Positions 4,229 to 64,000 of a DNA stretch of 64,000 bases are shown piece after piece (positions within the stretch are counted from its first letter, which is position 1; the number at the start of each line of letters is the position of its first letter). The notes below the pieces were generated by a model that was given only the letters and a program-made list of their open reading frames with translations, was not told the origin of the DNA and searched no databases. A program made the translations under genes and the position numbers. This DNA is from Armatimonadota bacterium (GTDB lineage: Bacteria; Armatimonadota; Chthonomonadetes; Chthonomonadales; CAJBBX01). The stretch lies in NCBI GenBank assembly GCA_026392115.1, contig JAPLCQ010000031.1, positions 26,776-90,775 on the forward strand. The letters are read 5' to 3'.

Positions 4229-5005
4229 ATGAATGTATTCACTGCAAATATACGCCACCAACCCTGGGTGTGGCAGGTCACGTCGCTCTGCTTTGTGCTG
4301 GGCTTGCTCGTTACCGTCTCGCTGCAGACGGTGTCGAGCATCCGCCAGTCCGGGGCGGGTACGGGCCGAGTGGGCGGGCCGCCCCTGGCCATGACGTCGC
4401 TTTCCGAGACGGTGCGCAAGCGCGAGAAGGAGATCTCCGACCTCCGCGAGAAGCAGACCCAACTCGAGAACACGATGGCGCACGGCAATGATCGTCTGAA
4501 GACGCTCAATGACGAGCTACAGAAGACGAAGATGCTTGCGGGCCTGACCGAAGTGACCGGCCCAGGCATCATCCTGACCCTGAATGACAGTGCGCGCCGT
4601 CCGCCCTCTAACCGGGCCTTTGAGCAGGAGCGCTACAACATCCACGACTACGACCTGCAGACCGTCGTGAATGAACTGGGCGCCAGCGGAGCCGAGGCGC
4701 TCTCCATCAACGGTCAGCGGTTCATCAGCCGGACATCCATCCGGTGCGTAGGGCCGACCATCCTCGTCAATGCCGTTCCCATGACCCCGCCGTACCATGT
4801 GCAGGCCATCGGCGATCCGCTCACGCTGGCCGGGGCGCTCAATCTGCCGGGCGGGTACTTGGATAACCTGCGCCAGACCGACCCGGGCATGTTCCGCCTT
4901 GAGAAGAGGGCGTTGCTGAGCATTCCCGACTACACGGGCAGCACCGAGGTGCGGTATATGCGGCCGGCCGACGCCGAAGGCTCATCCCGGAGGCGGCGCC
5001 GATGA
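4229..5005 (+). CDS. DUF881-family division-associated membrane protein (YlxW/YlxX-like)
   Basis: N-terminal TM helix, a coiled-coil segment, and the DUF881 hallmark TGPGIILTLND...GAEALSINGQRF...PPYHVQAIGD. Confidence 0.75.
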   Translation: MNVFTANIRHQPWVWQVTSLCFVLGLLVTVSLQTVSSIRQSGAGTGRVGGPPLAMTSLSETVRKREKEISDLREKQTQLENTMAHGNDRLKTLNDELQKTKMLAGLTEVTGPGIILTLNDSARRPPSNRAFEQERYNIHDYDLQTVVNELGASGAEALSINGQRFISRTSIRCVGPTILVNAVPMTPPYHVQAIGDPLTLAGALNLPGGYLDNLRQTDPGMFRLEKRALLSIPDYTGSTEVRYMRPADAEGSSRRRRR

Positions 5006-5388
5006 GAGGCTGGATGCCCGTGGCGGGCCTGTTGGCCGGCGTTCTGCTTGGCCTCTTCGGCTATCCGCTCCTCAATATCAGCCCGGAGGTGGCGAGCGCC
5101 TACGCGCCCTACCTGTCGCTGGCCACGCTGGCGGGTCTCGATACCGTCCTGGGTGGTGTTCGGGCAGGCATTGAGGGGCGCTTCCAGGACGACATCTTCG
5201 TCAGCGGCTTCCTCTTGAACACGCTGCTTGCGGCCGGCCTCGCATTCGTGGGTGATCGCATCGGCGTCGACCTCTTCCTTGCCGCGGTAGTTGCGCTGGG
5301 GTCGCGCGTGTTCCTGAACCTGTCCCTGATTCGGCGGTACGGGTTAACGAAGATGGCGTTGAACCGGCGTAAGGACGGCAGCGCCTAG
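5002..5388 (+). CDS. sbp: Small basic protein Sbp (DUF1290) membrane protein
   Basis: 4-nt overlap with the DUF881 gene. 128 aa, four hydrophobic segments, basic tail. Same ylxX-sbp-ftsA order as in Firmicutes. Confidence 0.6.
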   Translation: MRGWMPVAGLLAGVLLGLFGYPLLNISPEVASAYAPYLSLATLAGLDTVLGGVRAGIEGRFQDDIFVSGFLLNTLLAAGLAFVGDRIGVDLFLAAVVALGSRVFLNLSLIRRYGLTKMALNRRKDGSA

Positions 5389-5411: not shown

Positions 5412-6656
5412 TTGGGCAGGGAAACCTGGGTGGCCGGCCTTGATATCGGGTCCACGAAGACGTGCTGTGTCGTTGCGTGCGTGGACGAAGCAGGCGACAC
5501 GGCAGTCGCCGGCGTAGGTGTGGCCGTGAACACCGGGGTCAGGCGTGGCGCCGTGGTGGACATCGAACTCACGGCGGCGTCCATCCGCGAGGCCGTTGGG
5601 CGCGCATCGTCACAGGCCGGCATCGCCGTATCGGCGCTCCACGTCGGCGTGACCGGTGAGCATATCGTCGGCCAGAACTCGCGCGGCGTCACCGCCATCG
5701 TGGACCACGACCAGGACATCACGGAAGAGGACCGCTTGCGCGCTCTGCGCCAGGCGCGCGTCATCGTGGTCCCGCCGGATCGAACCATCCTCCACGCCTT
5801 GCCCCGAGGCTACGTGGTGGATGGGCACGAGGGGGTGCGGCATCCCGTGGGCATGTCGGGCGCCCGGCTGGAGGTCGAGGCGCACATCGTGACGGCCGGG
5901 CAGACCTTCCTGGCGAACATTCGCAAGTGCGTCGAGCGGGCCGGGTACTACTGCGCGGATATGTTCTTGGAACCGATCGCCGCCGGCGACGCAGCACTCG
6001 CCGACGGTGACCTGACGCAAGGCGTCTGCCTGGTCGACATCGGCGGCGAGGTCACCAACGTCGCCGTTTTCGACGAGCTGGGTATATACTACACATCCGT
6101 TCTTCCGCTGGGCGGGCGCCATGTCACGGCTGACATCGCACAACTCCTCCGTGTCAGCGCGGAGGAGGCGGAGCGTCTCAAGGTTTCCCATGGCGGCGCC
6201 ATGCCGGCTGCTGTGGCAGAAGACGAACTGGTCGGTGTTCACCAGATCGGTCGCGCCGAGGCTCGGCCGTTCAGGCGTCGAGCGCTGTGCCAGATTATGG
6301 AGGCGCGTGTCCGCGAGATTTTCGATCTGGTGCAGGACGAGATGGTCAAGTGCGGCGCCGACGTGCGCGCCGCAGGCGGCATCGTCCTGATCGGCGGTAC
6401 GGCAGCGATGCCGGGGATACGCGAATGCGCCGCGGCGCAGACGGGCCTTCCTGTGCGTTTGGGAGGCCCTGTAGGCGTTTCGGGGCTCTCGGACGCGGTG
6501 GCCGGGTCTGCGTGTTGTACGGCGTTGGGACTGGCCCTCCGCGCGGCTTCCGCGGCGCACATGGCCTCGGCGCCGACAGGCATGTTCGCCGTGCTGGTGG
6601 AGTGGTGGCGCAGGTTCCGGAGCGTCTTTCGACCGCACTCCGGCGGTGGACGCTAG
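5412..6656 (+). CDS. ftsA: FtsA, actin-like cell division protein
   Basis: TTG start with AGGAG 6 nt upstream. Actin-fold motifs GLDIGSTKTC and LVDIGGEVTNV. C-terminal amphipathic tail FAVLVEWWRRFRSVF. Confidence 0.9.
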   Translation: MGRETWVAGLDIGSTKTCCVVACVDEAGDTAVAGVGVAVNTGVRRGAVVDIELTAASIREAVGRASSQAGIAVSALHVGVTGEHIVGQNSRGVTAIVDHDQDITEEDRLRALRQARVIVVPPDRTILHALPRGYVVDGHEGVRHPVGMSGARLEVEAHIVTAGQTFLANIRKCVERAGYYCADMFLEPIAAGDAALADGDLTQGVCLVDIGGEVTNVAVFDELGIYYTSVLPLGGRHVTADIAQLLRVSAEEAERLKVSHGGAMPAAVAEDELVGVHQIGRAEARPFRRRALCQIMEARVREIFDLVQDEMVKCGADVRAAGGIVLIGGTAAMPGIRECAAAQTGLPVRLGGPVGVSGLSDAVAGSACCTALGLALRAASAAHMASAPTGMFAVLVEWWRRFRSVFRPHSGGGR

Positions 6657-6670
6657 CTCGACGCTTGGCT

Positions 6671-6697
6671 GCTTTTATATCATTATGAATTCATAGC
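6671..6697 (+). promoter_or_regulatory. AT-rich island with the 12-bp perfect palindrome TATGAATTCATA (6684-6695), just upstream of ftsZ-1
   Basis: gcttttatatcattatgaattcatagcc stands out in GC-rich DNA, in the ftsA-ftsZ gap. I could not fit a clean -35/-10 pair. Confidence 0.25.
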
Positions 6698-6709
6698 CTC
6701 ACTCTGGGG

Positions 6710-7999
6710 GTGGGTCGAATGGCTGATCAATCTGGGTTGCACCCGGCGGCTGACGTGAGCGGCGCGAGGATTCGTGTCGTCGGCGTCGGTGGTGCGGGCA
6801 CGAACGCCGTTAACCGAATGATCGAGGCCGGCCTCTCCGGCGTCGAGTTCATCGCGATGAACACGGACGCCCTGGTGCTGGAGACCTCTCTGGCGCCGGT
6901 GCGCCTGCACCTGGGCGAGGATCACGTGCGCGGCCTGGGCGCGGGAGGTAGGCCCGAAGTGGGCCGGGCTGCCGCCGAGCAGAGCAAGAGCGAAATCAAG
7001 CGCCTCCTGGACAAGTCGGACATGGTGTTCATTACAGCCGGCATGGGCGGCGGCACGGGGACGGGCGCCGCGCCGGTAGTCGCCGAGGTCGCCCGCGAGA
7101 TGGGCGCCCTCACCGTGGCGGTGGTCACCAAGCCCTTCGCGTTTGAGGGCCCCGTGCGCGGCCGCACGGCCGAACAGGGCGTTGACGCCCTCCGCTCGAC
7201 AGTGGACACCGTGATTACTGTGCCCAATGATCGCCTCCTCTCCATTGCCGACAAACGCGTGACGCTGGTCGATGCTTTCCGTATGGCCGACGAGGTCCTG
7301 CGCCAGGGCGTGCAGGGCATATCGGATATCATTACCATCGCGGGCGTCGTAAATGTCGACTTTGCCGACGTTGAGGCCACGATGCGCATGGCAGGCACCG
7401 CCATCATGGGCGTAGGCGCTGCATCCGGCGATCGACGAGCCGTGGAGGCCGCCCGGTTGGCCATCTCGTCGCCGTTGCTGGAGTGTTCCATTGAAGGCGC
7501 CCTGCGGGTGCTGATCAACGTCACCTCGGGTCCGGACCTGACGCTGCCGGAGGTCCATGAGGCGACGCAGATGGTTACGGATCTCTGCGACCCGCGCGAC
7601 GCCAATATCTACTTCGGCTGGGTTTGCGATCCCGACATGGTGGGCGAGGTCCGGGTCACCGTCCTGGCGACTGGATTCGGCTCGAGCCCGAGTAGCTCCG
7701 CCGCCCGAAGCGCCGCCGCGGCGGTTCCCAAGCCGGCGGCTCCCGCTCCGCCGGCGCCGGAGCCCCGGCGGGTGGCAGAGCCCTACCGCCTGCCCGAAGC
7801 TGTGACAACCGCCCCTGTGGCCGCCCCCGTGGCCGTGGCCGTGGCGCCCGTGGCAGCGCCCGCGCCGCCGCCCGCCGACGAGATCAGGCTGCCGGACCTG
7901 GCGCTGGACAATCGCCGGGCCGGTGCGCGCCGGGCTCCGGCGGACCGGGCCGCAGGCGAAGAAGCGTTGCAGATGCCGGCGTTCCTGCGCCGCGGTTAA
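6710..7999 (+). CDS. ftsZ: FtsZ paralog 1, with a long Pro/Ala-rich linker of about 105 aa (alternative ATG start at 6719)
   Basis: [15 protein letters not shown], tubulin signature [11 protein letters not shown]7 loop NVDFADV, and C-terminal peptide LQMPAFLRRG. Confidence 0.95.
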   Translation: MGRMADQSGLHPAADVSGARIRVVGVGGAGTNAVNRMIEAGLSGVEFIAMNTDALVLETSLAPVRLHLGEDHVRGLGAGGRPEVGRAAAEQSKSEIKRLLDKSDMVFITAGMGGGTGTGAAPVVAEVAREMGALTVAVVTKPFAFEGPVRGRTAEQGVDALRSTVDTVITVPNDRLLSIADKRVTLVDAFRMADEVLRQGVQGISDIITIAGVVNVDFADVEATMRMAGTAIMGVGAASGDRRAVEAARLAISSPLLECSIEGALRVLINVTSGPDLTLPEVHEATQMVTDLCDPRDANIYFGWVCDPDMVGEVRVTVLATGFGSSPSSSAARSAAAAVPKPAAPAPPAPEPRRVAEPYRLPEAVTTAPVAAPVAVAVAPVAAPAPPPADEIRLPDLALDNRRAGARRAPADRAAGEEALQMPAFLRRG

Positions 8000-8025
8000 C
8001 GAACCTCAAGGCATAACGCGAACGC

Positions 8026-8052
8026 GAGGCGACCGACCGGCTCGGTCGCCTC
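8026..8052 (+). terminator. Stem-loop between the two ftsZ genes: 11-bp perfect stem gaggcgaccga/tcggtcgcctc, loop ccggc, no U-tract
   Basis: Arms at 8026-8036 and 8042-8052 are exact reverse complements. It could act as a partial terminator or a processing/stability element. Confidence 0.35.
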
Positions 8053-8081
8053 CGTTCATGCGTGGGCAGATAGTGGAGTAG

Positions 8082-9182
8082 GTGAGCATGGGCGCATTCA
8101 ACGCAGGTGGTCCCGGCGCGGTCATCAAGGTCGTGGGCGTGGGCGGCGGCGGCACCAACGCCGTGAACCGAATGATCGAGGCCGGTCTGGGTGGCGTCGA
8201 GTTCATCGCTATGAACACGGACCGACTGGTCCTCGATGTCTCGCTGTCGCCGGTCAAGATGCGGCTGGGCGAGAACCGCACGCGCGGGCTCGGCGCCGGC
8301 GGAGATCCCGACGTGGGTCACCAGGCCGCCGAAGAGAGCCGCTCGGACATCCGCAAGGAGCTCGAGGGCGCCGATATGGTGTTCATCACGGCCGGCATGG
8401 GCGGCGGCACCGGCACCGGCGCCGCGCCCGTGATCGCCGAGATCGCCCGGAGCCTGAACGCCCTGACCGTTGCGGTGGTCACCAAGCCCTTCAACTTCGA
8501 GGGGCCGCGCCGGATGCGGACCGCCGAAGAAGGCATCGACAAGCTGAAGCAGTCTGTGGACACCGTCATCACAGTTCCGAACGACCGCCTGCTGAGCCTC
8601 GGTGACCGCCGCATGACCCTGGTAGACGCCTTCCGTATGGCCGATGACGTGCTGCGGCAGGGCGTTCAAGGCATCTCGGACATCATCACGATCCCGGGCC
8701 TGATCAACGTCGACTTTGCCGACGTCCGCTCCACCATGGAGAGCGCCGGCACCGCCCTCATGGGGATCGGCGTGGCCCACGGCGACCATCGTGCCGTGGA
8801 AGCGGCCCAGGCGGCGATCTCCAGCCCGCTTCTGGAGACCACCATCGACGGGGCGCGCAAGGTGTTGATCAACCTCACCTCGGGTCCCGACCTGGCGCTG
8901 GCCGAGGCGCACGAGGCCGCTCAGATGATCAGCGGCTTGTGCGACCTGAAGGAGGCGAGCATCATCCTGGGTTGGGTGATGGACCCCGACATGGAGGGGC
9001 AGCTTCGCGTCACGGTACTGGCGGCGGGGTTCGGTCCGCGCCCGGTGGTGCGGCCGGCGGTAACCGTCCGTCCCGCAGCCCCGGGGCCCGCGGCTCCCGC
9101 GCCGCCGCCGCCGACCCCGCCGCGCACCGAGACGAAGGCGATCGATCTGCCCAGCTTCGTCAACCGTCCGGGTTCAGAGTAG
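8082..9182 (+). CDS. ftsZ: FtsZ paralog 2, with a short linker of about 48 aa (alternative ATG start at 8088)
   Basis: [36 protein letters not shown], and C-terminal peptide IDLPSFV. My hand alignment to paralog 1 is ungapped over about 305 core residues, with 84 mismatches (about 72% identity). Confidence 0.93.
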
Positions 9183-9217
9183 GGGACACTGGGTTCGGCC
9201 CCCATTGCGGGAGGCTG

Positions 9218-9262
9218 CTGCGCGGCGCACACCGGTCCCGAGGTGCGCCGCGCAGTCGTTTG
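9218..9262. terminator. Bidirectional terminator hairpin between convergent ftsZ-2 and the GT operon
   Basis: 13-bp perfect stem ctgcgcggcgcac (9218-9230) / gtgcgccgcgcag (9243-9255), followed by tcgtttgt. Confidence 0.6.
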
Positions 9263-9271
9263 TCGATGAGC

Positions 9272-10402
9272 CTACGCCGCTCCGCCGGCCACTTCCTCGT
9301 AGAGCGATAGCGTGGAGGCGCCCGTCTCGGACCACGTGAGCTCCGCAGCCCGGCTGAGGCCCGCCGCGGAGAGCTTGTCCCGGAGGTCCTGACTGGCCAT
9401 GACGCTGGCCAAGGCATCACCCCATGCCGCCGCATCCATGGCGGGCAGCACCCACGCGCCATTGCCGGCCACCTCGGGCATGGCGGGAGCTTCGCTGACG
9501 AGGGTTGGCGTGCCGCATGCCATGGCTTCCAGCGGGGGCAACCCGAAGCCCTCATAGAGCGACGTGAACGCCATGGCGTCGGCGGCGCGGTAGAGGTCTG
9601 GAAGCGCCTCGTCGGGCACGTAGCCGGCCAGCGCCACTGAGTCGTTCAAATCCAACCGCGAGATGAGCCGGTCCACCCGTTCCGACTGCCAGCCCTTCTT
9701 GCCCACGAGCAACAGCTGGTGCGTCTTGCCCGCCTGACGGATGGCCCTGGCGAAGGCCTCCACCAGCAGTGGCACGTTCTTGCGCGGCTGCAGGACACCC
9801 ACCGAGATGATGTAGGGCTTGGTGACGCCCAGCGTCGCGGCTGCGGCCCGGGCAACCTCCCGGTCGCCGGGCTGGTACTCGGGTCCGGCGGCCAGCGGTA
9901 TGGCCACCACCTTGTCGGTCGCAAATCCGAACACCCGCAGGATGTCGCGCTGAGAGCTCTCCGACACGGTGATCACCGCGTCGGCATGGCGCATGGAGGG
10001 CGGCACCGTGAGGTTCATCAGCATGCGGTGCTTGCGCGGGAACCACTCGGGGTAGAGCCTGAACGAGATGTCGTGCACCGTTGTAACCATCTTGCAGGGG
10101 CGCGACATGGGGATCGTGTACTGCGTATGGGCCAGGTCGATGTTGTCCTGCCGCAGCGCACGAGGAAAGGTGAGCATGGTCCAGAGCCGATCATTGCTGG
10201 CCGGCAGGCAGCGCTGCGTGAGACAGGGCGCCTCTGGTAGCTCGCCGGCGGGGATCGGCAACCGGGTGTAGACGACGAACTCATGCTGCTCGGGCCATCC
10301 CTCGGCCATGGCCTCGACGAATGATCGCAGCAGGTTGCGCCAGTAGGTCCGGTCGCCTGTGTACCGGCCCGAAAGAACGCGCCCGTCAATGCCAATCCGC
10401 AT
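9272..10402 (-). CDS. Glycosyltransferase family 4 (GT-B, group 1)
   Basis: C-terminal EGFGLPPLEAMACGTPTLVS (E-x7-E region). The ATG directly abuts the stop codon of the upstream gene. Confidence 0.85.
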   Translation of the reverse strand: MRIGIDGRVLSGRYTGDRTYWRNLLRSFVEAMAEGWPEQHEFVVYTRLPIPAGELPEAPCLTQRCLPASNDRLWTMLTFPRALRQDNIDLAHTQYTIPMSRPCKMVTTVHDISFRLYPEWFPRKHRMLMNLTVPPSMRHADAVITVSESSQRDILRVFGFATDKVVAIPLAAGPEYQPGDREVARAAAATLGVTKPYIISVGVLQPRKNVPLLVEAFARAIRQAGKTHQLLLVGKKGWQSERVDRLISRLDLNDSVALAGYVPDEALPDLYRAADAMAFTSLYEGFGLPPLEAMACGTPTLVSEAPAMPEVAGNGAWVLPAMDAAAWGDALASVMASQDLRDKLSAAGLSRAAELTWSETGASTLSLYEEVAGGAA

Positions 10403-18680: not shown

Positions 18681-18804
18681 ACGCAGGGGACTTTTCGCTA
18701 CCTGCGAGAGGCGACCCGGCAAGAATTCAGCACAGGAGTGGGCGAGGGCACAGAGTGCGTCAGTGAGCAGTGGTCCGGTTCCTGGTCCTTGGGAGGTTAG
18801 TTCA

Positions 18805-19869
18805 ATGGAAGGCAGCTCGGCGACGGTCGACCGGCCGCGCGCGCCGAAGCGCGACACAAAGAAGAAGGTCGTTGATGCGGAAGTTGACTTCGCGCCGGCC
18901 GACGAACAGCACGATGAGTTCGTGGAAGAGCCGGCAGACGGTCTGCTCTCGCTGACGAACGCCCTCGACGATGATGTCGCACAGCCTGACCTCGAGGAGG
19001 CCGAGGACACCGCCGAAGCCGAGTACAGCGCCACGCCTCCGGCAAGGCCCGATGATGAAGAGATTCACATCTGGGTCAGCCGCGCCAGGGGTGCGCAGCT
19101 TCTCACCGCCGACGAAGAGGTGCGCCTCGCCAAGCGCGTGCAGCGCGGCGACAAGAGGGCCAAGGACGAACTGACTGAGGCCAACCTCCGCCTTGTGGTT
19201 AGCATAGCCAAGAAGTACAGCGTGCGAGGTATCCCGCTGCCCGACCTCATCCAGGAGGGCAACATCGGGCTGATTCGCGCCGTGGAGAAGTTCGACCCGG
19301 ACAAGGGCTTCCGGTTCAGCACCTATGCGACATGGTGGATTCGGCGCGCCATTGCCAGGGCCATCATCAACCAGGGGCGGACGATCCGGATTCCGGTCTA
19401 CGTGGCCGAAATCATCCATAAGCTGGTCAAGGCGTCGAGCCGCCTGCGGCAGCAGCTCCAGCGCGAGCCGACGGTGGACGAACTGGCCCGTGAGCTCGAA
19501 GTGACGGTGGACCGCGTGAACGAGATCATGCGGATCGCCATGGAGCCGCTCTCGCTGGAGACGCCCGTCGGAGAGAAGGACAACAGCCAGCTGTCCGATT
19601 TCATCCAGTCCAGCACGGCGCCGTCGCCTTCCGAGGCCACGCTGAACCTGATTCGCCGAGAGCAGATTGAGGAGGTCCTCAATAAGCTCACCGGTCGCGA
19701 GCGCGAGGTGCTCCGTATGCGCTTCGGGCTGGACGACGGTTATGCCCGTACCCTGGAGGAGGTGGGAAGCCGCCTGCACGTCACCAGGGAGCGGGTCCGC
19801 CAGATTGAGCTGCGGGCGCTGAAGAAGCTGCGCCACTTTGGTCCTGCCGAGCTGATGCGCCACGCATAG
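18805..19869 (+). CDS. rpoD: Primary RNA polymerase sigma factor (RpoD/SigA)
   Basis: GGGAGG RBS 8 nt upstream of the ATG at 18805. Acidic region 1.1; region 2 has [18 protein letters not shown] and [10 protein letters not shown]; region 4.2 has [20 protein letters not shown]. Confidence 0.93.
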
Positions 19870-19896
19870 GCTCGACCAGATCGACAACGATGCGAT

Positions 19897-19920
19897 AGGG
19901 GAGGGCCCACGCCCTCCCCT
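19897..19920 (+). terminator. Hairpin after rpoD: 10-bp stem aggggagggc/gccctcccct, loop ccac
   Basis: Exact reverse-complement arms at 19897-19906 and 19911-19920. Only a single T follows. Confidence 0.45.
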
Positions 19921-19945
19921 TGGCGCGTCGGGGAGCCATGCCGCC

Positions 19946-21331
19946 ATGAGCATTCGGACCGCCGTCATCCTCGCCGCCGGCGCGTGCGCCCGCATGTGGC
20001 CCTTCGCGACGGTGCGCAACAAGGCCGCCATGCCGGTGGCCAACGTGCCCAATGTGCGCCGCCTGGCCGACAGCCTGGCGACGATCGGCATCGACCGGCT
20101 TGTGGTCGTGGTCGGCGCGCAGGCCGGCTCCGTCCGCCACGCCCTCCTGGGCTGCTCCCTGCCCGTCGCGTTCGTGGGCTCCGAGTCCGGCGGCACCGCG
20201 TCCGGCGGCACCGCGTCCGCCCTCCTGGCGGGCCTTGGGCAGGTGGAGGATGAGACCTTCCTGGTCGTGTACGGCGACACCGTGACCACCGAGGCCAACC
20301 TGCGCGCCGTGGCCCAGGCGCCCTCCGCCGCCGGCGCGGCAGGGGCCGTCCTGACCGATCCCATGCCCCACGGCGAGGGCTCCGACTGGTACCACGCCCA
20401 TGTGGAGGAGGGGCGCGTCCGCGGCATCGTCGGCCACGAATGCGACGGCGAGGTCCGCGTCTGCGGCGTGCTGGCGCTCCATCGCTCCATCATTCCCGTG
20501 CTGGAGGCCAATCCCGGCTTCATGCGGGCCGTGCCGGTGGGCGGAATGCCGCCGGCCGAGGCCGACCTGATGCAGAGCCTCAACGACTGGGACGCCGACG
20601 TGGCCGCGGTGCCCGCCACCGACTTCGTCATCGACATGGACAAGCCCTGGCAGGCGCTGGCGGCCAACCACGCCATGGCGCGGCGCCTCACGGACGGGCT
20701 TACGGAGAGCGTGATCCATCCCACGGCGGCCATCAGCGACGGCGCGGAGATATCCGGTTTCGTGCAGGTCGGGGCGGGCTCCGTCATCGGCAAAAGATCC
20801 GTGCTCAGGGGGCCGGCTATCATCGGCGCGGGCACGCGGCTCATCAACGGTCCCATCCTCGAGGGCGGCAACGTCATTGGCGACGGGACGCGGCTCAGCG
20901 ACTACGGCCTGGTGGGCCAGTACTCCGTGGTGGGCCACCACTGTGTGGTGGGCCATGGAGCCGAGATCGACGGGGCCATGCTCGACGGCTCGTACCTGTG
21001 GCATTACTGCGAGGTATGCGGTTTGGTGGGCCACTCCGTGGATATCGGCGCCGCGACGGTTTGCGGTACGCTTCGCTTCGACGACGGCAACGCGGAGCAT
21101 CGCGTCCGTGGCCGCCGCGAGCGCCCGACCGTGCTGGCGAACAGCACCTACTACGGCGACTTCTCGCGCACCGGCGTGAACGTCATAACCATGCCGGGCG
21201 CCAGGATCGGCTGCTACGCCTGCGTCGGCGCGGGGGTGGTCGTCACCGGCGATGTGCCGGACCGTACCCTCCGCCTCCTGAAGCAGGAGACGGTGGACCG
21301 CCCGTGGGGCCCGGAGCGCTACGGCTGGTAG
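19946..21331 (+). CDS. Sugar-phosphate nucleotidyltransferase fused to a left-handed beta-helix (GlmU / eIF2B-gamma-like architecture)
   Basis: N-terminal AVILAAGACARM...KAAMPV NTP-transferase pattern. The C-terminal half is rich in hexapeptide repeats (IGAGTRLINGPILEGGNVIGDGTRL...). Confidence 0.75.
   Translation: MSIRTAVILAAGACARMWPFATVRNKAAMPVANVPNVRRLADSLATIGIDRLVVVVGAQAGSVRHALLGCSLPVAFVGSESGGTASGGTASALLAGLGQVEDETFLVVYGDTVTTEANLRAVAQAPSAAGAAGAVLTDPMPHGEGSDWYHAHVEEGRVRGIVGHECDGEVRVCGVLALHRSIIPVLEANPGFMRAVPVGGMPPAEADLMQSLNDWDADVAAVPATDFVIDMDKPWQALAANHAMARRLTDGLTESVIHPTAAISDGAEISGFVQVGAGSVIGKRSVLRGPAIIGAGTRLINGPILEGGNVIGDGTRLSDYGLVGQYSVVGHHCVVGHGAEIDGAMLDGSYLWHYCEVCGLVGHSVDIGAATVCGTLRFDDGNAEHRVRGRRERPTVLANSTYYGDFSRTGVNVITMPGARIGCYACVGAGVVVTGDVPDRTLRLLKQETVDRPWGPERYGW
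20186..20220 (+). repeat. Perfect in-frame tandem duplication of a 15-nt unit (tccggcggcaccgcg, 2.3 copies), encoding SGGTA-SGGTA-S
   Basis: 20186-20200 and 20201-20215 are identical, and the next 5 nt repeat again. It lies inside the nucleotidyltransferase domain. Confidence 0.9.
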
Positions 21332-59122: not shown

Positions 59123-60169
59123 GGACGGACCTTGGCGCATGTGAAGGGTCAGCGAATTCCGTATACGGGTAGTGCATGAGTGGACGGCTCTGTGGTGATC
59201 CGGTTGCCTCGGATGCGCCTGAGCGGCTTCGTTCCTGGCTTCCTGCGGCCACAGCACCGTGCGATAGCGGAGGTGGACGCGTGGGTCGAGCGGGCCCTGC
59301 TGTGCGGCGTGAGCCGGTCGGAGCTGTGCCAGCTCATGTCGATCGTCACGGGTTTTGTGCCGGCCCCGTCGGTACTGGCCCGTGTGGAGGCCACGCTGGA
59401 CGCGAAGGTCAAGCAGTTCAAGGAGCGTCGGCTACCGTCGGTCTATGAGTACCTGTACCTGGATGCGGCCTGGGTGAAGGACCTGATCGGCCGAACGACG
59501 GGTCGGGTCTGTGTGCTCATGGCGATCGGCGTCACAACTGATGGTCGAAAGGAGATCCTGGGCTTTGAGCGTGTTCAGCGTGAGAGCGGCTCGTTCTGGC
59601 GCGGGTTCCTAACCCGTCTGGTGGCTCGCGGACTGGCGCCTGATCGGCTACACCTGGTGATATCGGACGAGCACCGTGGCCTCCTCGAAGCCGTCCCTGA
59701 GGTTCTGGGCGACGTGCCGCACCAGCTCTGCTGGGCGCACCGGATGCACAACGTGCACGATGCGGTAGTGGTGGCGCATCGGGTTGAGGTTCGCGACGGA
59801 CTGCGAGGCGTTTACGAGGCCGGAAGCCTGACCGAGGCCGATGCCAGGCTACGGGCGTTCTGTCGGCGCTGGGGTTCGACGTACCCCAACCTCGCCGCCA
59901 AGCTGTTGGGCGACGCCCGCTACCTTCTGGTCTGCTTCTCCGAGCCGCCCTGCCGCCGCGAGTACCTTCGGACCACCAACCCGATCGAGCGCACCTTCCG
60001 CGAGGTCCGGCGTTGGCGACGCGGCTGCGACGCGTTCGCAGACGTCAAGTCGTGCGACCGTACCTTCTTCAAGGTCTCATACCTGCTGAACGAGAGGCGG
60101 GCAACCCACGACCTGTGGTACAAGCGCCGCAAGTTGCCCGAGCCGGCACAGGACGGACGGACGCCGTAG
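59123..60169 (+). mobile_element. IS256-family (mutator-type) transposase gene, decayed: in-frame TGA at 59177-59179 and a missing or unrecognisable N-terminus
   Basis: The ORF 59180-60169 has IRLPRMRLSGFVPGFL, YLYLDAAWVKD, LVISDEHRGL and TTNPIERTFREVRRWRR (DDE triad context). The same frame upstream reads GRTLAHVKGQRIPY, which resembles the ERT...QRNGY segment. No terminal inverted repeats found. Confidence 0.7.
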
Positions 60170-60300
60170 GCTCAGCCGGTCGGCTGCGTGGAGCTCCAAG
60201 CTAAGCTCAGGCGCGGCCGACCGGCGGGACAACCGAGAAACATGAGAGCAAGACCCGCCCACGACAAGGGCAGGAGCACGGAACCAGTTACACACACCAG

Positions 60301-60330
60301 TTGACACGACCGGGCTCACGGACGTATCTT
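60301..60330 (+). promoter_or_regulatory. Candidate promoter for the DUF11 genes: TTGACA-18-TATCTT
   Basis: -35 at 60301-60306 and -10 at 60325-60330. This would give a leader of about 220 nt. Confidence 0.3.
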
Positions 60331-60555
60331 GCGCCATGTTAAGATCGGTGGTACCATGGCCACTACGAATTGAGCACCACGGTAGCGGTCCATGACGAGC
60401 GGTACTGGATCTGTGCGTTGGGCGTCGCATGAACGGTTCGCACAGCCTGTGGTCGTCCTGTGTCCCTACAACCGACCCAAGTGGCGGGCGGGAGCTCATA
60501 TCGTGCCGATCGCGACACAGCTGTCGCCGCAACCGCGCTGATCTCAGGAGGAACG

Positions 60556-61086
60556 ATGAACCGTAAGCTAGCCATACCGGTCCTGCTGGCCGCATGCCTT
60601 GGCCTGTCGGCGCAGGTGGCCGCCGTCGCTCAGACGAAGCCCGCTGGTGATGTGGTGTCGAGCCTGACGGCTCACCGCATCGTTCGAGACGGCAAGGGTG
60701 TTGAGACCAAGGTGACCGCAGAGGCTGCCCGGCCGGGCGATACTATCGAGTACGCCCTGACCTACACAAACGGGAGCGAGAAGCCGATTCGGAACCTCAA
60801 GGCGACGCTGCCGATCCCGGTCCGCACTGAGTTCCTCCCGAATACTGCAGAGCCTGCCGACATCCTGGCCAGCGTGGACGGGCGCACCTATGCGGCGCCT
60901 CCCCTCACGCGTAAGGTCTCACTGCCTGGAGGCAAGACCCGTACTGAGAACGTCCCACTGGACGAGTACCGCTACGTTCGCTGGACGGTTGCGGATCTAG
61001 GTCCAGCCAAGTCGACGACGCTTCACCTACGAGTCAGGGTGCTTCCGGGTGACAGGAAGGGGGGTGCAGCCAAGCCCTCTCGTTGA
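60556..61086 (+). CDS. Secreted single-domain DUF11 (conserved repeat domain) protein
   Basis: AGGAGG RBS and signal peptide MNRKLAIPVLLAACLGLSAQVAAVAQ. ARPGDTIEYALTYTNGSEKPIRNL is the DUF11 core. Confidence 0.7.
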   Translation: MNRKLAIPVLLAACLGLSAQVAAVAQTKPAGDVVSSLTAHRIVRDGKGVETKVTAEAARPGDTIEYALTYTNGSEKPIRNLKATLPIPVRTEFLPNTAEPADILASVDGRTYAAPPLTRKVSLPGGKTRTENVPLDEYRYVRWTVADLGPAKSTTLHLRVRVLPGDRKGGAAKPSR

Positions 61087-61301
61087 CGTAGTGCGCTGTT
61101 TCCTGTAGGCGCGTGTCTGTTCCAGTGCCTCAGATCCACCCCCTGATACCGGCCGGCGTCCAAGACGCTGCGGCCGGACCTGTGAAGTAGCCGCACCGCA
61201 GCAAGCATCGCAGGTCCAGTATCTGTAGCCATGCACCAAGCGCGGTCTGGCGCCGCGTGTCCGATGACGGATCACTCTGAGAGCAATAAGGGGAACGAGT
61301 C

Positions 61302-63929
61302 ATGAGAGTCGGGAGGATTGGGCTAATCGCTACCGCGCTCTGTGCGGTCGCGCTCACAGGATGGGCAGGCAAGGCCGATGCGCAGATGCCGCCGGCCGGT
61401 GCAACCATCGGCAACCAGGCATCTGCCACGTACACCGATGGCTCCGGCGTATCGCGAACCGTCAGTTCCAACGTCGTAACCACGATCGTCCAGCAGGTCG
61501 CCGCCCTCACGCTGACCATGGACAACACCAAGGTCGCGGTAGCCGGCGGCAAGGTCTGGTACCCGCACACCCTGACCAACACAGGCAACGGGACCGACAC
61601 GTTCTCGCTGCTACTCACCCAGTTGGCCACCGACAACTTCGACCTCGCGGGCGCTCTCATCTACCCCGACGCCGACGGTGATGGTGTGCCCGACTCCGGC
61701 GCAGCCGCTATTACGAGCACAGGCCCGTTGGTGGCCGGCGGATCGTTCCGGTTCGTGATCGAAGGCTCGATCCCGGGCAGCGCGACGAACGGGCAGAACT
61801 CCGTCGTCACGATCAAGGGCACCAGCGCCTTCGCGGCCGGCGTGACCGCGCTGAACACGGACACCGTGTCCGTCACGCAGAACGCCGTGATCACCGCGAC
61901 CAAGGGCATCGACGTCCAGACCGGCGCGGCGCCCAGCGGACCGTACACCTATACCGTTACGTACACGAACAACGGTATCGGCGCGGCCAGTAACCTCAAG
62001 GTCGAGGACATCGTCCCGGCCGGCATGACCTATGTTCCAGGCAGCGCGCGCTGGAGCCGATCGGGCGGCACGGCGCTGACCGACGCGACGGGCGGTGACC
62101 CGTCTGGGATCGCTTATGACTTCGGCCAGACCACCGGCAACGCCCTGACCGCCGTGATCGCTTCGGTTCCGCAAGGGGCCCGCGAAACCCTTACCTTCCA
62201 GGTGATGGTCGCATCCGGCACGCTGGCGGGTACCATCACGAACACGGCCACCCTCAGCTACAACGACGGCACCGGCACCACTGTAGCCGGCTCCACCAAC
62301 GGCGCTCCGTTCACCGTCGCCAAGGCGGCCGGCGTCACCATCACCGGCGATACCGTGGCCTCCGCCGCCCAGGGCGGCACGGTCACCTTCAACAACGTGG
62401 TGACTAATACCGGCAACGCCACGGACATCATCGACATCCTGCTGCAGAACAGCACGTTCCCGGCCGGCACCACCTTCCAGCTCTACAAGAGCGACGGCGT
62501 CACTCCGCTGACGGCCTCGGAAGGCAGCCAGTATCCCGACACCGGCCCCTTGGCGCCCGGTCAGTCCTACACCGTGGTCCTGAAGGCGACGCTGCCTCCA
62601 GGGTTCTCCGGCAACGGACCCTACACAGTGCAGAAGAAGGCGATGTCGGATAACGATGGCACGGTGTTCGCCGTCGCCACCGACAGCCTCGGCGCCGTTC
62701 TCGCCAACGCCGTCGACCTTACCAACGATGCACCGTACAGCGCCACGGTTCCCGCACCCGGCCAGGGCCAGGGTCCTGAAACGAACCCGGTGACCACCCT
62801 CACCACGAACCCGGGGAGCACGGTCCGCTTCACGCTGTATGTGAACAACCGCAGTTCCGTGACGGACAGCTTCTCGCTTCAGGCCAGCCTGGATAAGACC
62901 TTCGCCAACATGACCTTGCCGCCTGGTATGACCGTCTCCTTCAAGGATTCTGGCGGTGCGGTGATCACCACAACCGGCGCCATCGCTGCCGGCGGCAGCA
63001 AGGTGGTCTACGCGGACATGTTCGTCCCGTCCACCACTCCGCCCGGCACGGTGTCCGGCTACTTCCGCGCCATCTCACCGACCAGCGGCGCGTTCGACAT
63101 CAAGCATGACGCAATCACCGTACAGACGCTCCGCAGCATATCCATCCAGCCCGACGGCAACGGCCAGGTCCAGCCCGGCGGCTCGGTAGTCTATGCCCAC
63201 ACCGTGACCAACACGGGTAATGTGCTGGAAGGCTCCGGATCGGCTACTAGCTCGACCACGTCGACCCTGGTCGATAGCCAGCCCGGGTGGTCGTCGGCGG
63301 TCTACTACGACGCCAACGGAAACGGTGTCCTCGATATCACCGACCCGATCATCACCGACCTGTCGCCCATGGGCGGCATCGCCCCCGGCGCCTCCAAGAC
63401 CATCTTCGTCAAGGTCTACTCGCCGGCAGGCGCCCCGGTGGGCGCTATCGACACTACGACGGTCACACTGACCACCGACCAGGGCATCTATCAGGTGGCG
63501 GCGCCGCCTGCGGTGAACAGCCACGACACCACGACCGTCATCTCGGGCCAACTCCAGATCATCAAGGAGCAGGCTCTCGATGCCAACGGTGACGGTACTG
63601 CCGAGACCGCGTTCGGCACCACCAACCTGACCACCGGCGCCGTGCCGGGCGCCTGCATCCGATACCGGATCAGGCTCACCAACAACGGCACCACTCCTGC
63701 CACCACGGTGGTTCTGAGTGATGCCACGCCCAGGTGGACTACGTACCACCTGGGTGACGGCTCGACGAGCCCGACCGGCAAGGCCTGCATGAGCACGGAC
63801 AACAACACCACGTTCGTGGCCATCACGGCACCGGCCGCTGACGGCACCGGCACCTTCAGTGCCAGCGTCGCCACCATCGCTCCGGGGCAGACGGTCTACG
63901 TCTACTTCGGCGTCAAGATCAAGCAGTAG
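61302..63929 (+). CDS. Large secreted DUF11-repeat surface protein (875 aa, several tandem Ig-like repeats)
   Basis: Signal peptide. Recurrent pattern G..v.Y..t.TN.GN..d.f.l (e.g. VWYPHTLTNTGNGTDTFSL, VTFNNVVTNTGNATDIIDI, VVYAHTVTNTGNVLEG, IRYRIRLTNNGTTPAT). Confidence 0.75.
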   Translation: MRVGRIGLIATALCAVALTGWAGKADAQMPPAGATIGNQASATYTDGSGVSRTVSSNVVTTIVQQVAALTLTMDNTKVAVAGGKVWYPHTLTNTGNGTDTFSLLLTQLATDNFDLAGALIYPDADGDGVPDSGAAAITSTGPLVAGGSFRFVIEGSIPGSATNGQNSVVTIKGTSAFAAGVTALNTDTVSVTQNAVITATKGIDVQTGAAPSGPYTYTVTYTNNGIGAASNLKVEDIVPAGMTYVPGSARWSRSGGTALTDATGGDPSGIAYDFGQTTGNALTAVIASVPQGARETLTFQVMVASGTLAGTITNTATLSYNDGTGTTVAGSTNGAPFTVAKAAGVTITGDTVASAAQGGTVTFNNVVTNTGNATDIIDILLQNSTFPAGTTFQLYKSDGVTPLTASEGSQYPDTGPLAPGQSYTVVLKATLPPGFSGNGPYTVQKKAMSDNDGTVFAVATDSLGAVLANAVDLTNDAPYSATVPAPGQGQGPETNPVTTLTTNPGSTVRFTLYVNNRSSVTDSFSLQASLDKTFANMTLPPGMTVSFKDSGGAVITTTGAIAAGGSKVVYADMFVPSTTPPGTVSGYFRAISPTSGAFDIKHDAITVQTLRSISIQPDGNGQVQPGGSVVYAHTVTNTGNVLEGSGSATSSTTSTLVDSQPGWSSAVYYDANGNGVLDITDPIITDLSPMGGIAPGASKTIFVKVYSPAGAPVGAIDTTTVTLTTDQGIYQVAAPPAVNSHDTTTVISGQLQIIKEQALDANGDGTAETAFGTTNLTTGAVPGACIRYRIRLTNNGTTPATTVVLSDATPRWTTYHLGDGSTSPTGKACMSTDNNTTFVAITAPAADGTGTFSASVATIAPGQTVYVYFGVKIKQ

Positions 63930-63936
63930 GGACAGC

Positions 63937-63974
63937 GTGGGCTCCACCGTGCACCGCTGCACGGTGGAGCCCAC
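63937..63974 (+). terminator. Strong hairpin after the DUF11 gene (17-bp perfect stem, 4-nt loop, no U-tract)
   Basis: gtgggctccaccgtgca (63937-63953) / tgcacggtggagcccac (63958-63974). Confidence 0.55.
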
Positions 63975-64000
63975 CGCACCGCTGCCGTGCTACCCAGGGT

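Follow-up and report, generated by a model that had tools for sequence, protein, structure and literature searches.

Two ftsZ genes at the end of the dcw cluster

We analyzed a 64,000-nt stretch of contig JAPLCQ010000031.1 (the window, about 68% G+C, to which all coordinates refer) from an armatimonadote bacterium, and in particular the two ftsZ genes that it carries, here named Z1 (upstream) and Z2 (downstream). [quoted passage not shown] An earlier note on this DNA had described two tandem ftsZ genes, 82 nt apart, at the end of the cluster. The open reading frames (ORFs), the gene order and the family models all confirmed this description: the two proteins scored 392 bits (Z1) and 403 bits (Z2) against the NCBIfam ftsZ equivalog TIGR00065, whose cutoff is 295, both were above the cutoffs for Pfam Tubulin (PF00091) and FtsZ_C (PF12327), and solved FtsZ structures aligned to the entire core of either copy with an E value of about 1e-107. 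The features of the locus are listed in Table 1.

The Z1 ORF (6710-7999) encodes 429 amino acids (aa) from an alternative GTG start at 6710, and the Z2 ORF (8082-9182) encodes 366 aa from an alternative GTG start at 8082. The spacing between the copies is 82 nt for these GTG-based ORFs and 88 nt for the ATG starts. The ATG codons at 6719 and 8088 are likely the real starts, since a purine-rich ribosome-binding site precedes each of them and they agree with the starts of database proteins: read from its ATG, Z1 is 100% identical to P0001 (426 aa, annotated 'MAG: Armatimonadetes bacterium', MAG denoting a metagenome-assembled genome), and the Z2 start agrees with that of P0019 (363 aa). Exact-sequence look-ups of the window proteins from all four possible start codons gave no entry, the full match to P0001 coming from the homolog search.

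Table 1. Coordinates of the features at the ftsZ locus
Feature	Position	Strand	Remarks
ftsA	5412-6656	+	Last dcw gene before the pair; TIGR01174, 355.8 bits; Pfam FtsA, SHS2_FTSA
ftsA-Z1 intergenic element	6673-6714	+	AT-rich TTTTATATCATTATGAATTCATAG (6673-6696), then ribosome-binding site GGGGGTGGG (6706-6714)
ftsZ copy 1 (Z1)	6719-7999	+	426 aa from ATG; fast-evolving paralog, ancestral-type long tail, PAFLRR-type peptide
Z1 T1 loop	6782-6811	+	GVGGAGTNAV; third Gly of GGGG replaced by Ala (column 21; Gly in 98% of other FtsZ)
Z1 tubulin signature/G-box (T4 loop)	7040-7075	+	Intact
Z1 T7 synergy loop	7352-7372	+	NVDFADV, both catalytic aspartates; intact
Z1 disordered linker	7679-7957	+	Pro/Ala-rich; sequence and length vary among close orthologs, 13 gapped positions against L161
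Z1 C-terminal peptide	7958-7996	+	EEALQMPAFLRRG; ancestral P-A-F-L-R-R type, compare DDLDIPAFLRRR in single-copy relatives
Z1-Z2 intergenic hairpin	8016-8063	+	GC-rich, inner stem 8026-8052, without T-run; -38.2 kcal/mol, z = -2.7
Z2 ribosome-binding site	8075-8086	+	GGAGTAGGTGAG; nearly identical in L161
ftsZ copy 2 (Z2)	8088-9182	+	364 aa from ATG; conservative core, shortened tail, derived C-terminal peptide
Z2 G-box	8394-8429	+	Intact
Z2 T7 loop	8706-8726	+	NVDFADV; intact
Z2 C-terminal peptide	9138-9179	+	LPSFVNRP type; D-L-P-x-F-V hydrophobic core kept, basic RRR end lost
Hairpin between Z2 and GT4 gene	9217-9256		Strong GC hairpin followed by CGTTTGTCG; -53.1 kcal/mol, z = -3.48, none of 200 shuffles equally stable
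Convergent GT4 glycosyltransferase gene	9272-10402	-	Downstream of Z2

Core motifs and paralog signatures

The cores of Z1 and Z2 are identical at 224 of 310 positions (72%) without a single gap (BLASTP, E = 5e-140), in agreement with the ungapped alignment of roughly 72% identity on which the earlier note had relied. Loops T1 to T7 are kept in every Z1- and Z2-type protein, and with the G-box (pattern GGGTG[ST]G), the NVDFADV loop and a C-terminal peptide present in both window copies, both would appear to be functional, as had been claimed. Two further remarks about the cores were correct but carry no weight. The motif IAGVVN does stand in Z1 in place of IPGLIN, but it is no unusual deviation, as the FtsZ of S. 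aureus has 'VSGEVN' there. Stretches of higher DNA similarity do exist (82-88% around 6776-6866 versus 71% overall), but a run test gave no indication of gene conversion (P = 0.81); the T1 loop and helix H1 encoded there form the most conserved peptide, and codon use in this genome is biased.

Several substitutions recur among Z1-type proteins. Among ten lineage representatives, GGGG in the T1 loop has become GGAG in seven, the window included, Q47 (98% conserved) is replaced in seven, and I116V occurs in all ten. These recurrent changes are close to the longitudinal interface and to the nucleotide-pocket edge. Z2-type proteins have a signature of their own, L306 together with A313. The window Z2 carries both residues, and among 207 FtsZ proteins the combination was found only in the 12 of Z2 type; these columns hold V and T, respectively, in 97-100% of other FtsZ.

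At column 47, beside the T2 loop, Leu stands in both window paralogs (AMNTDAL, 6854-6874; AMNTDRL, 8208-8228), whereas 98% of other FtsZ have Gln. This shared Q47L could reflect co-adaptation at a common interface, parallel substitution or conversion over a very short tract.

Tails, linkers and C-terminal peptides

The sharp difference in tails reported in the earlier note, with linkers of about 105 and 48 aa, was reproduced: the measured tails after the core are 106 aa in Z1 and 49 aa in Z2. In single-copy relatives the tail measures 73-101 aa (median 78, 139 hits), with DDLDIPAFLRRR at its end. Z1-type tails span 73-108 aa and end in DLDIPAFLRRR (L166 group), DLDRPAFWRRR (L168) or EEALQMPAFLRRG (window), and those of Z2 type span 48-67 aa, with DLDIPPFLRP in most lineages and the basic end lost in the lineage of the window. 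The C-terminal peptide is thus kept by both copies in all lineages. That of the window Z2 is a weaker match to the pattern D/E-x-h-P-x-F-h-R/K, with N replacing R/K after F-V, and the Z1 terminus is basic while the window Z2 terminus is not. In B. subtilis and E. coli, the lateral bundling of FtsZ is known to be influenced by the charge at the extreme C-terminus.

Two segments inside the linkers were also observed. An island, DEIRLPDLALDNRR at 7877-7918, with the pattern DEI[R/K]LPDLAL[D/E][D/N]RR, is conserved within the otherwise variable Z1 linker. It was found in all three close orthologs (window, L161 and P0002), and the other Z1-type lineages are without it. The island is similar to the pattern of the C-terminal peptide (acidic-h-x-h-P-x-h-h) and could serve as an additional motif for partner binding inside the linker. 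The Z2 linkers of the L166 type (L166:9226-10362; P0122, P0125 and P0127) hold a conserved GRMLD[V/L]PP[A/G]LR segment, which looks like a degenerate internal copy of the terminal DLDIPPFLR peptide.

Occurrence of the pair

The syntenic arrangement ftsA-Z1-Z2 was found in at least five diverged lineages and in many independent assemblies, all from a group of uncultured soil and lake bacteria within the Armatimonadota, order Chthonomonadales. Closest to the window are the P0002 contig (Z1 428 aa and 89% identical to that of the window, Z2 360 aa, gap 83 nt) and 13 contigs from several samples that carry P0019 (Z1 425 aa, Z2 363 aa, gap 83 nt). The latter include L161, the sister species used in the comparisons below, which comes from lake samples and matches exactly the GTDB species representative L001 ('uncultured Chthonomonas sp.'). 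More distant are L166/L167 (Z1 393 aa, Z2 378 aa, gap 43 nt), L168 (419 aa, 387 aa, 40 nt) and L169/L170 (409 aa, 383 aa, 44 nt), and the longest contig, 33,946 bp for both proteins, suggests that P0160 and P0122 form a further pair. Wherever the context could be read, the Z1-type protein lay directly upstream of the Z2-type protein, and all lineages had a gap of 40-88 nt between the genes.

The first 160 related loci comprised 80 GTDB species representatives (Z2 as query) and 80 metagenome contigs (Z1 as query). Two ftsZ genes were found in L001 only, the other 159 of the 160 being single within the available flanks, and the further tandem lineages were reached through the tree neighbors P0082, P0121 and P0161. 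The closest single-copy relatives, L162 (P0037) and L164/L165 (P0003), carry a single ftsZ after ftsA at the corresponding place, as do other Armatimonadota, and L162 has the downstream GT4 genes in common with the window.

The possibility that the second copy was an artefact of assembly, for which the earlier note had proposed a check, was excluded. The same pair with the same neighbors was recovered in many independent assemblies and samples, and the copies differ at 29% of core nucleotides, because of which mis-assembly of a repeat is impossible.

Origin and age of the duplication

A neighbor-joining (NJ) tree was built from concatenated MurC, DUF881, Sbp and FtsA (716 columns). The tandem-bearing genomes formed one clade in it, with 97% bootstrap, beside the single-copy L162/L164 lineages. 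A second NJ tree, with 207 FtsZ cores, placed the paralogs in one compact group of 26 proteins, 14 of Z1 type and 12 of Z2 type, and both window copies nested among Chthonomonadales FtsZ and not in the cyanobacterial/plastid lineage. Bootstrap values within this group were uneven: 69-77% for the monophyly of the Z1-type proteins, 96-100% for the L166/L168-type Z2 group, and just 13-22% for the window Z1 and Z2 as sisters. The joint monophyly of all paralogs received 41-44%, which leaves the precise node of the duplication without a firm placement.

The derived residues speak more clearly on the duplication than the distance tree. In columns with agreement among 10 or more of 12 outgroups, 25 derived states were common to Z1 lineages only and 15 to Z2 lineages only, and just two were exclusive to both copies of one genome, one in the window (Q47L) and one in L168. 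Core DNA identity between the copies is 71% overall and 51% at third codon positions, and the proportion of synonymous differences (pS) between paralogs is 0.55-0.69. A run test on synonymous codons found no conversion tracts (longest run 7, permutation P = 0.81); the same codon is used in Z1 and Z2 at a fraction of 0.55, with 0.45 expected from codon usage. The shared derived states and the absence of conversion tracts indicate one old tandem duplication at the base of a Chthonomonadales subclade, followed by independent evolution of the copies.

Other histories were considered and set aside. A recent tandem duplication was ruled out by the 71% core nucleotide identity and the presence of the pair in many assemblies. 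Gene conversion or concerted evolution was rejected, there being no excess of runs and a single derived residue exclusive to the window copies. Independent duplications in each lineage were rejected in view of the 25 Z1-only and 15 Z2-only states, the exclusive L306/A313 and the constant gene order. A foreign origin of Z1 by horizontal gene transfer was not supported, since FtsZ of Chthonomonadales are its nearest outsiders (74% identity) and its place in the tree is with Z2 inside the order; the joint monophyly has weak NJ support (41-44%).

Selection and rate asymmetry

Between the window and L161, at a synonymous distance (dS) of about 0.7, the ratio of nonsynonymous to synonymous change (dN/dS) of the core was 0.022 for Z1 and 0.023 for Z2, compared with 0.099 for ftsA; the tails gave about 0.1, with insertions and deletions. 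Between L166 and L168, dN of the core was 0.314 for Z1, 0.135 for Z2 and 0.416 for ftsA. These values point to strong purifying selection on both cores, tighter than on ftsA. The earlier note had allowed for a decaying duplicate, and neither copy is decaying: frames and motifs are intact and dN/dS is about 0.02.

Across lineages, Z1 orthologs are 61-69% identical in the core and Z2 orthologs 76-87%. Among single-copy relatives the identity is 82-90%, and they share 75-80% with Z2 and 59-74% with Z1; both paralogs have therefore accelerated compared with single-copy FtsZ, and Z1 far more strongly. Overall, the Z1 core evolves about 2-5 times faster than that of Z2. Tajima relative-rate tests gave unique changes (Z1:Z2) from 38:26 to 43:19 for the window (P = 0.13 to 0.002), from 40:16 to 42:19 for L166 (P about 0.001-0.003) and from 66:13 to 75:12 for L168 (P between 1e-7 and 1e-11). 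Among 158 near-invariant columns, 34 deviate in Z1-type proteins and 8 in those of Z2 type. The two copies have therefore diverged in a complementary manner, Z2 having a conservative core and a derived tail and Z1 a derived core and an ancestral tail. Sub-functionalization, rather than redundancy, would be expected to produce such a pattern.

Expression signals

No intrinsic terminator was predicted by a consensus scan between ftsA and the end of Z2. The hairpin between the copies was considered as such a terminator and rejected, as it has no T-run and its conservation ends with the sister species: L161 has a weaker form (z = -1.5), and no structure was seen in the deeper lineages L166 and L168. 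It is possibly an attenuator, or a processing or stabilizing element, that tunes the Z1:Z2 ratio. The hairpin after Z2 is probably the terminator of the dcw transcript. With no terminator between Z1 and Z2 and a terminator-like hairpin after Z2, co-transcription of the two genes would be the simplest reading.

The intergenic element between ftsA and Z1 is well conserved, by eye, between the window and L161, two sequences that differ at about 47-53% of synonymous sites in the flanking genes. Its AT-rich part is possibly an ftsZ-proximal promoter or belongs to a 5' untranslated region; a scan for the sigma-70 consensus did not flag it (6673-6696). The sole sigma-70-like site between 6400 and 9400 lies inside Z1 at 7203-7231 on the + strand, about 850 nt upstream of Z2. 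It consists of TGGACA, a 17-nt spacer and AATGAT (9 of 12 matches, with 0.1 expected from shuffles), and may be a chance match.

Comparison with known FtsZ pairs

In the literature that we searched, no description of a tandem ftsZ pair within a dcw cluster was found. The earlier note had drawn a parallel with the FtsZ1/FtsZ2 pairs of archaea and plastids, which stands as an analogy but not as kinship, the duplication being independent and limited to one Chthonomonadales subclade. The present pair belongs to neither family, because its origin is independent, both C-terminal peptides are kept and the genes are adjacent.

Like plastid FtsZ1/FtsZ2 (FtsZB/FtsZA in red algae), Z1 and Z2 are long-retained duplicates of a bacterial-type FtsZ that are GTPase-competent by their motifs and have distinct tails. 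Plant FtsZ1 lacks the conserved C-terminal peptide. Unlike the plastid pair, the present one arose within Chthonomonadales, is adjacent in one operon and keeps both C-terminal peptides. The plastid paralogs are described as co-assembling in one ring in which one forms a stable backbone and the other adds dynamics (PMC3494859, PMC12343686). By analogy, this split offers a working model in which Z2 would be the backbone and Z1 would supply the dynamics.

As in archaea with FtsZ1 and FtsZ2, two full-length FtsZ occur in one organism. Non-redundant division roles are reportedly played by FtsZ1 and FtsZ2 of Haloferax. Both archaeal proteins are widely retained, according to a survey of FtsZ (PMC8178401), and their duplication predates archaeal diversification, the genes being unlinked (PMC9871819). 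The Chthonomonadales duplication, unlike that one, is confined to one subclade of one order and its genes are in tandem.

Bacterial duplicates with an active GTPase domain also occur in alphaproteobacteria (Agrobacterium FtsZ1/FtsZ3, Sinorhizobium FtsZ2 and paralogs in Hyphomicrobiales), and A. tumefaciens FtsZ1 co-polymerizes with canonical FtsZ and needs it for midcell localization (10.1101/412759; 10.1101/2025.09.29.679267). These duplicates are not part of the dcw operon, and most of them are truncated, without the linker and/or the C-terminal peptide, whereas Z1 and Z2 are full length and inside dcw. Two full-length bacterial FtsZ have also been described in Segatella copri DSM 18205 and S. 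sanihominis; the passages available to us report redundancy in S. copri, at strain or species level in the Bacteroidota, and mention neither a tandem dcw arrangement nor clade-wide conservation.

Within the phylum itself, some Armatimonadetes are stated to have two FtsZ homologs (Pende et al. 2021, PMC8178401, legend of Fig. 5b). The supplementary material of that survey places the second FtsZ of Chthonomonas sp. UBA2354 and UBA2785, Fimbriimonas ginsengisoli and Uphvl-Ar2 on another contig or at a distant locus (PMC8178401, Supplementary Data 2); only one of the two copies adjoins ftsA, and C. calidirosea has one FtsZ. The second FtsZ of Pende et al. is therefore a different, unlinked paralog, in contrast to Z1 and Z2, which lie 82-88 nt apart.

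A proposed two-component Z ring and its alternatives

The reading that we consider most likely, and hold with moderate confidence, is that the pair represents co-transcribed, sub-functionalized subunits of one Z ring, and two FtsZ proteins probably make up the division ring in this clade. The sub-functionalization proposed in the earlier note fits the patterned, asymmetric divergence of core versus tail and the retention of the pair by selection. A tandem duplication of ftsZ occurred once, in the ancestor of the Chthonomonadales subclade, with both copies kept at the end of dcw ever since. Z1 and Z2 would be co-transcribed from one operon with separate ribosome-binding sites, made together, and co-assembled into mixed filaments or bundles within a single Z ring. 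The polymer would have Z2 as its main backbone; Z1, by means of the altered edge of its GTP pocket, its long linker and its basic C-terminus, would modulate the dynamics, spacing and bundling of filaments. The differing tail peptides would bias the two proteins towards different membrane anchors or regulators, and in the lineage of the window the intergenic hairpin may tune the Z1:Z2 ratio. Both FtsA and SepF are reported in Armatimonadetes, including Chthonomonas (PMC8178401).

Several points weigh against a shared ring with divided labor. Co-assembly and the division of labor are read from gene order and sequence, and all pair-bearing genomes are MAGs or metagenome contigs; we know of no cultured organism with a tandem pair. 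The rate asymmetry in the lineage of the window is modest (P = 0.002-0.13, depending on the outgroup), and over the recent interval between the window and L161 both cores have been equally slow. The FtsZ phylogeny is an NJ tree with simple distance correction in which the joint monophyly of all paralogs is weak (41-44% bootstrap). Finally, the G21A and Q47 changes are not universal in Z1-type proteins, the L166 group keeping both ancestral residues, and for this reason no single Z1 mechanism can be read from them.

Functionally redundant duplicates, of which either would suffice while the second provides dosage or robustness, would agree with two complete copies in the same operon position and have a bacterial precedent in the two full-length FtsZ reported for S. 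copri DSM 18205 (bioRxiv 10.64898/2026.04.17.719208). Survival to synonymous saturation (pS 0.55-0.69) across at least five lineages is, however, not expected of redundant copies, nor do they fit with the fixed residues, linker lengths and tail peptides conserved within each paralog family or with a dN/dS of about 0.02 in both cores, and we regard redundancy as unlikely. We are similarly doubtful of separate roles, in which Z2 would divide the cell and Z1 would form filaments for another process, such as another mode of division, a change of shape or a ring specific to stress or stage. The faster and more lineage-variable Z1 core would suit such roles, and the lineage-specific hairpin or the promoter-like site inside Z1 (7203-7231) could uncouple expression; against this, the two genes lie side by side without exception, every lineage having a gap of 40-88 nt and none a terminator within it, and the Z1 peptide is identical or nearly so to the divisome-binding peptide of single-copy relatives. 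Because Z1 keeps this ancestral peptide, the same division-site partners are indicated for it.

A heteropolymeric Z ring that needs both Z1 and Z2, which would make the pair an independently evolved, free-living bacterial counterpart of plastid FtsZ1/FtsZ2, is a tentative proposal to which we give some, though limited, credence. The co-operonic order and the recurrent remodeling of the Z1 GTP-pocket edge hint at a path towards tubulin-like specialized subunits, and the tail peptides could guide Z1 and Z2 to separate anchors, FtsA versus SepF. An obligate alternating heterodimer in the style of alpha/beta-tubulin or BtubA/B, with filaments made from Z1-Z2 pairs only, seems to us quite improbable. 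Its tandem, co-operonic layout does resemble btubAB, and Q47L, beside the T2 loop, is the only derived residue exclusive to both window copies; yet the GTP pocket and the catalytic T7 loop are complete in both copies of all lineages, with nothing to suggest a non-hydrolyzing site, the motifs of the interface region stay close to those of homopolymerizing single-copy FtsZ, and systematic complementary changes at the interface were not found. Obligate co-polymerization, which the earlier note had raised beside sub-functionalization, is thus far not supported, and neither copy has lost the catalytic T7 residues, a loss that might be seen in an obligate heterodimer of the alpha/beta-tubulin kind. 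An assembly artefact or a recent, decaying duplicate has nothing in its favor beyond the general rarity of two ftsZ genes, and is excluded for practical purposes by the 29% core nucleotide difference, the many independent assemblies and samples, the intact frames and motifs and the dN/dS of about 0.02.

To our knowledge nearly all bacteria use one FtsZ, and two complete, adjacent, co-operonic bacterial ftsZ genes under strong constraint are unusual. A two-subunit ring in this clade would amount to a natural experiment in the passage of a homopolymeric cytoskeletal filament to a two-subunit system, as in plastids, archaea and, remotely, tubulin. The pair also offers matched natural variants for asking which effects linker length and C-terminal charge have and how treadmilling speed is set by pocket-edge residues, with the single-copy sister lineages as controls. 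Everything beyond the comparative genomics of uncultured organisms is inference here, and no principle is overturned.

Neighboring genes and other features of the window

No third FtsZ was found within the 64-kb window, and a Pfam scan of 20 further window ORFs did not find sepF, min or zap genes. The DUF881 and DUF1290 (small basic protein-like) genes lie between ftsQ and ftsA at 4229-5388, an arrangement kept in all Chthonomonadales loci examined that recalls the ylxW and ylxX-sbp genes beside ftsA in Bacillus. Downstream of the pair there are three GT4 glycosyltransferase genes on the minus strand, the first of which is listed in Table 1.

Farther along, a 690-aa ORF at 18802-20877 on the minus strand has a gene-like codon composition (G+C at third codon positions 0.80) and no Pfam match at E <= 1e-5. 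A Mutator-family transposase is encoded at 59180-60169 on the + strand (PF00872, E = 2.4e-53). At the right end of the window (60000-64000) the G+C content falls from about 0.68-0.70 to 0.64-0.66 and the GC skew is reversed, and this segment may be mobile or recently acquired.

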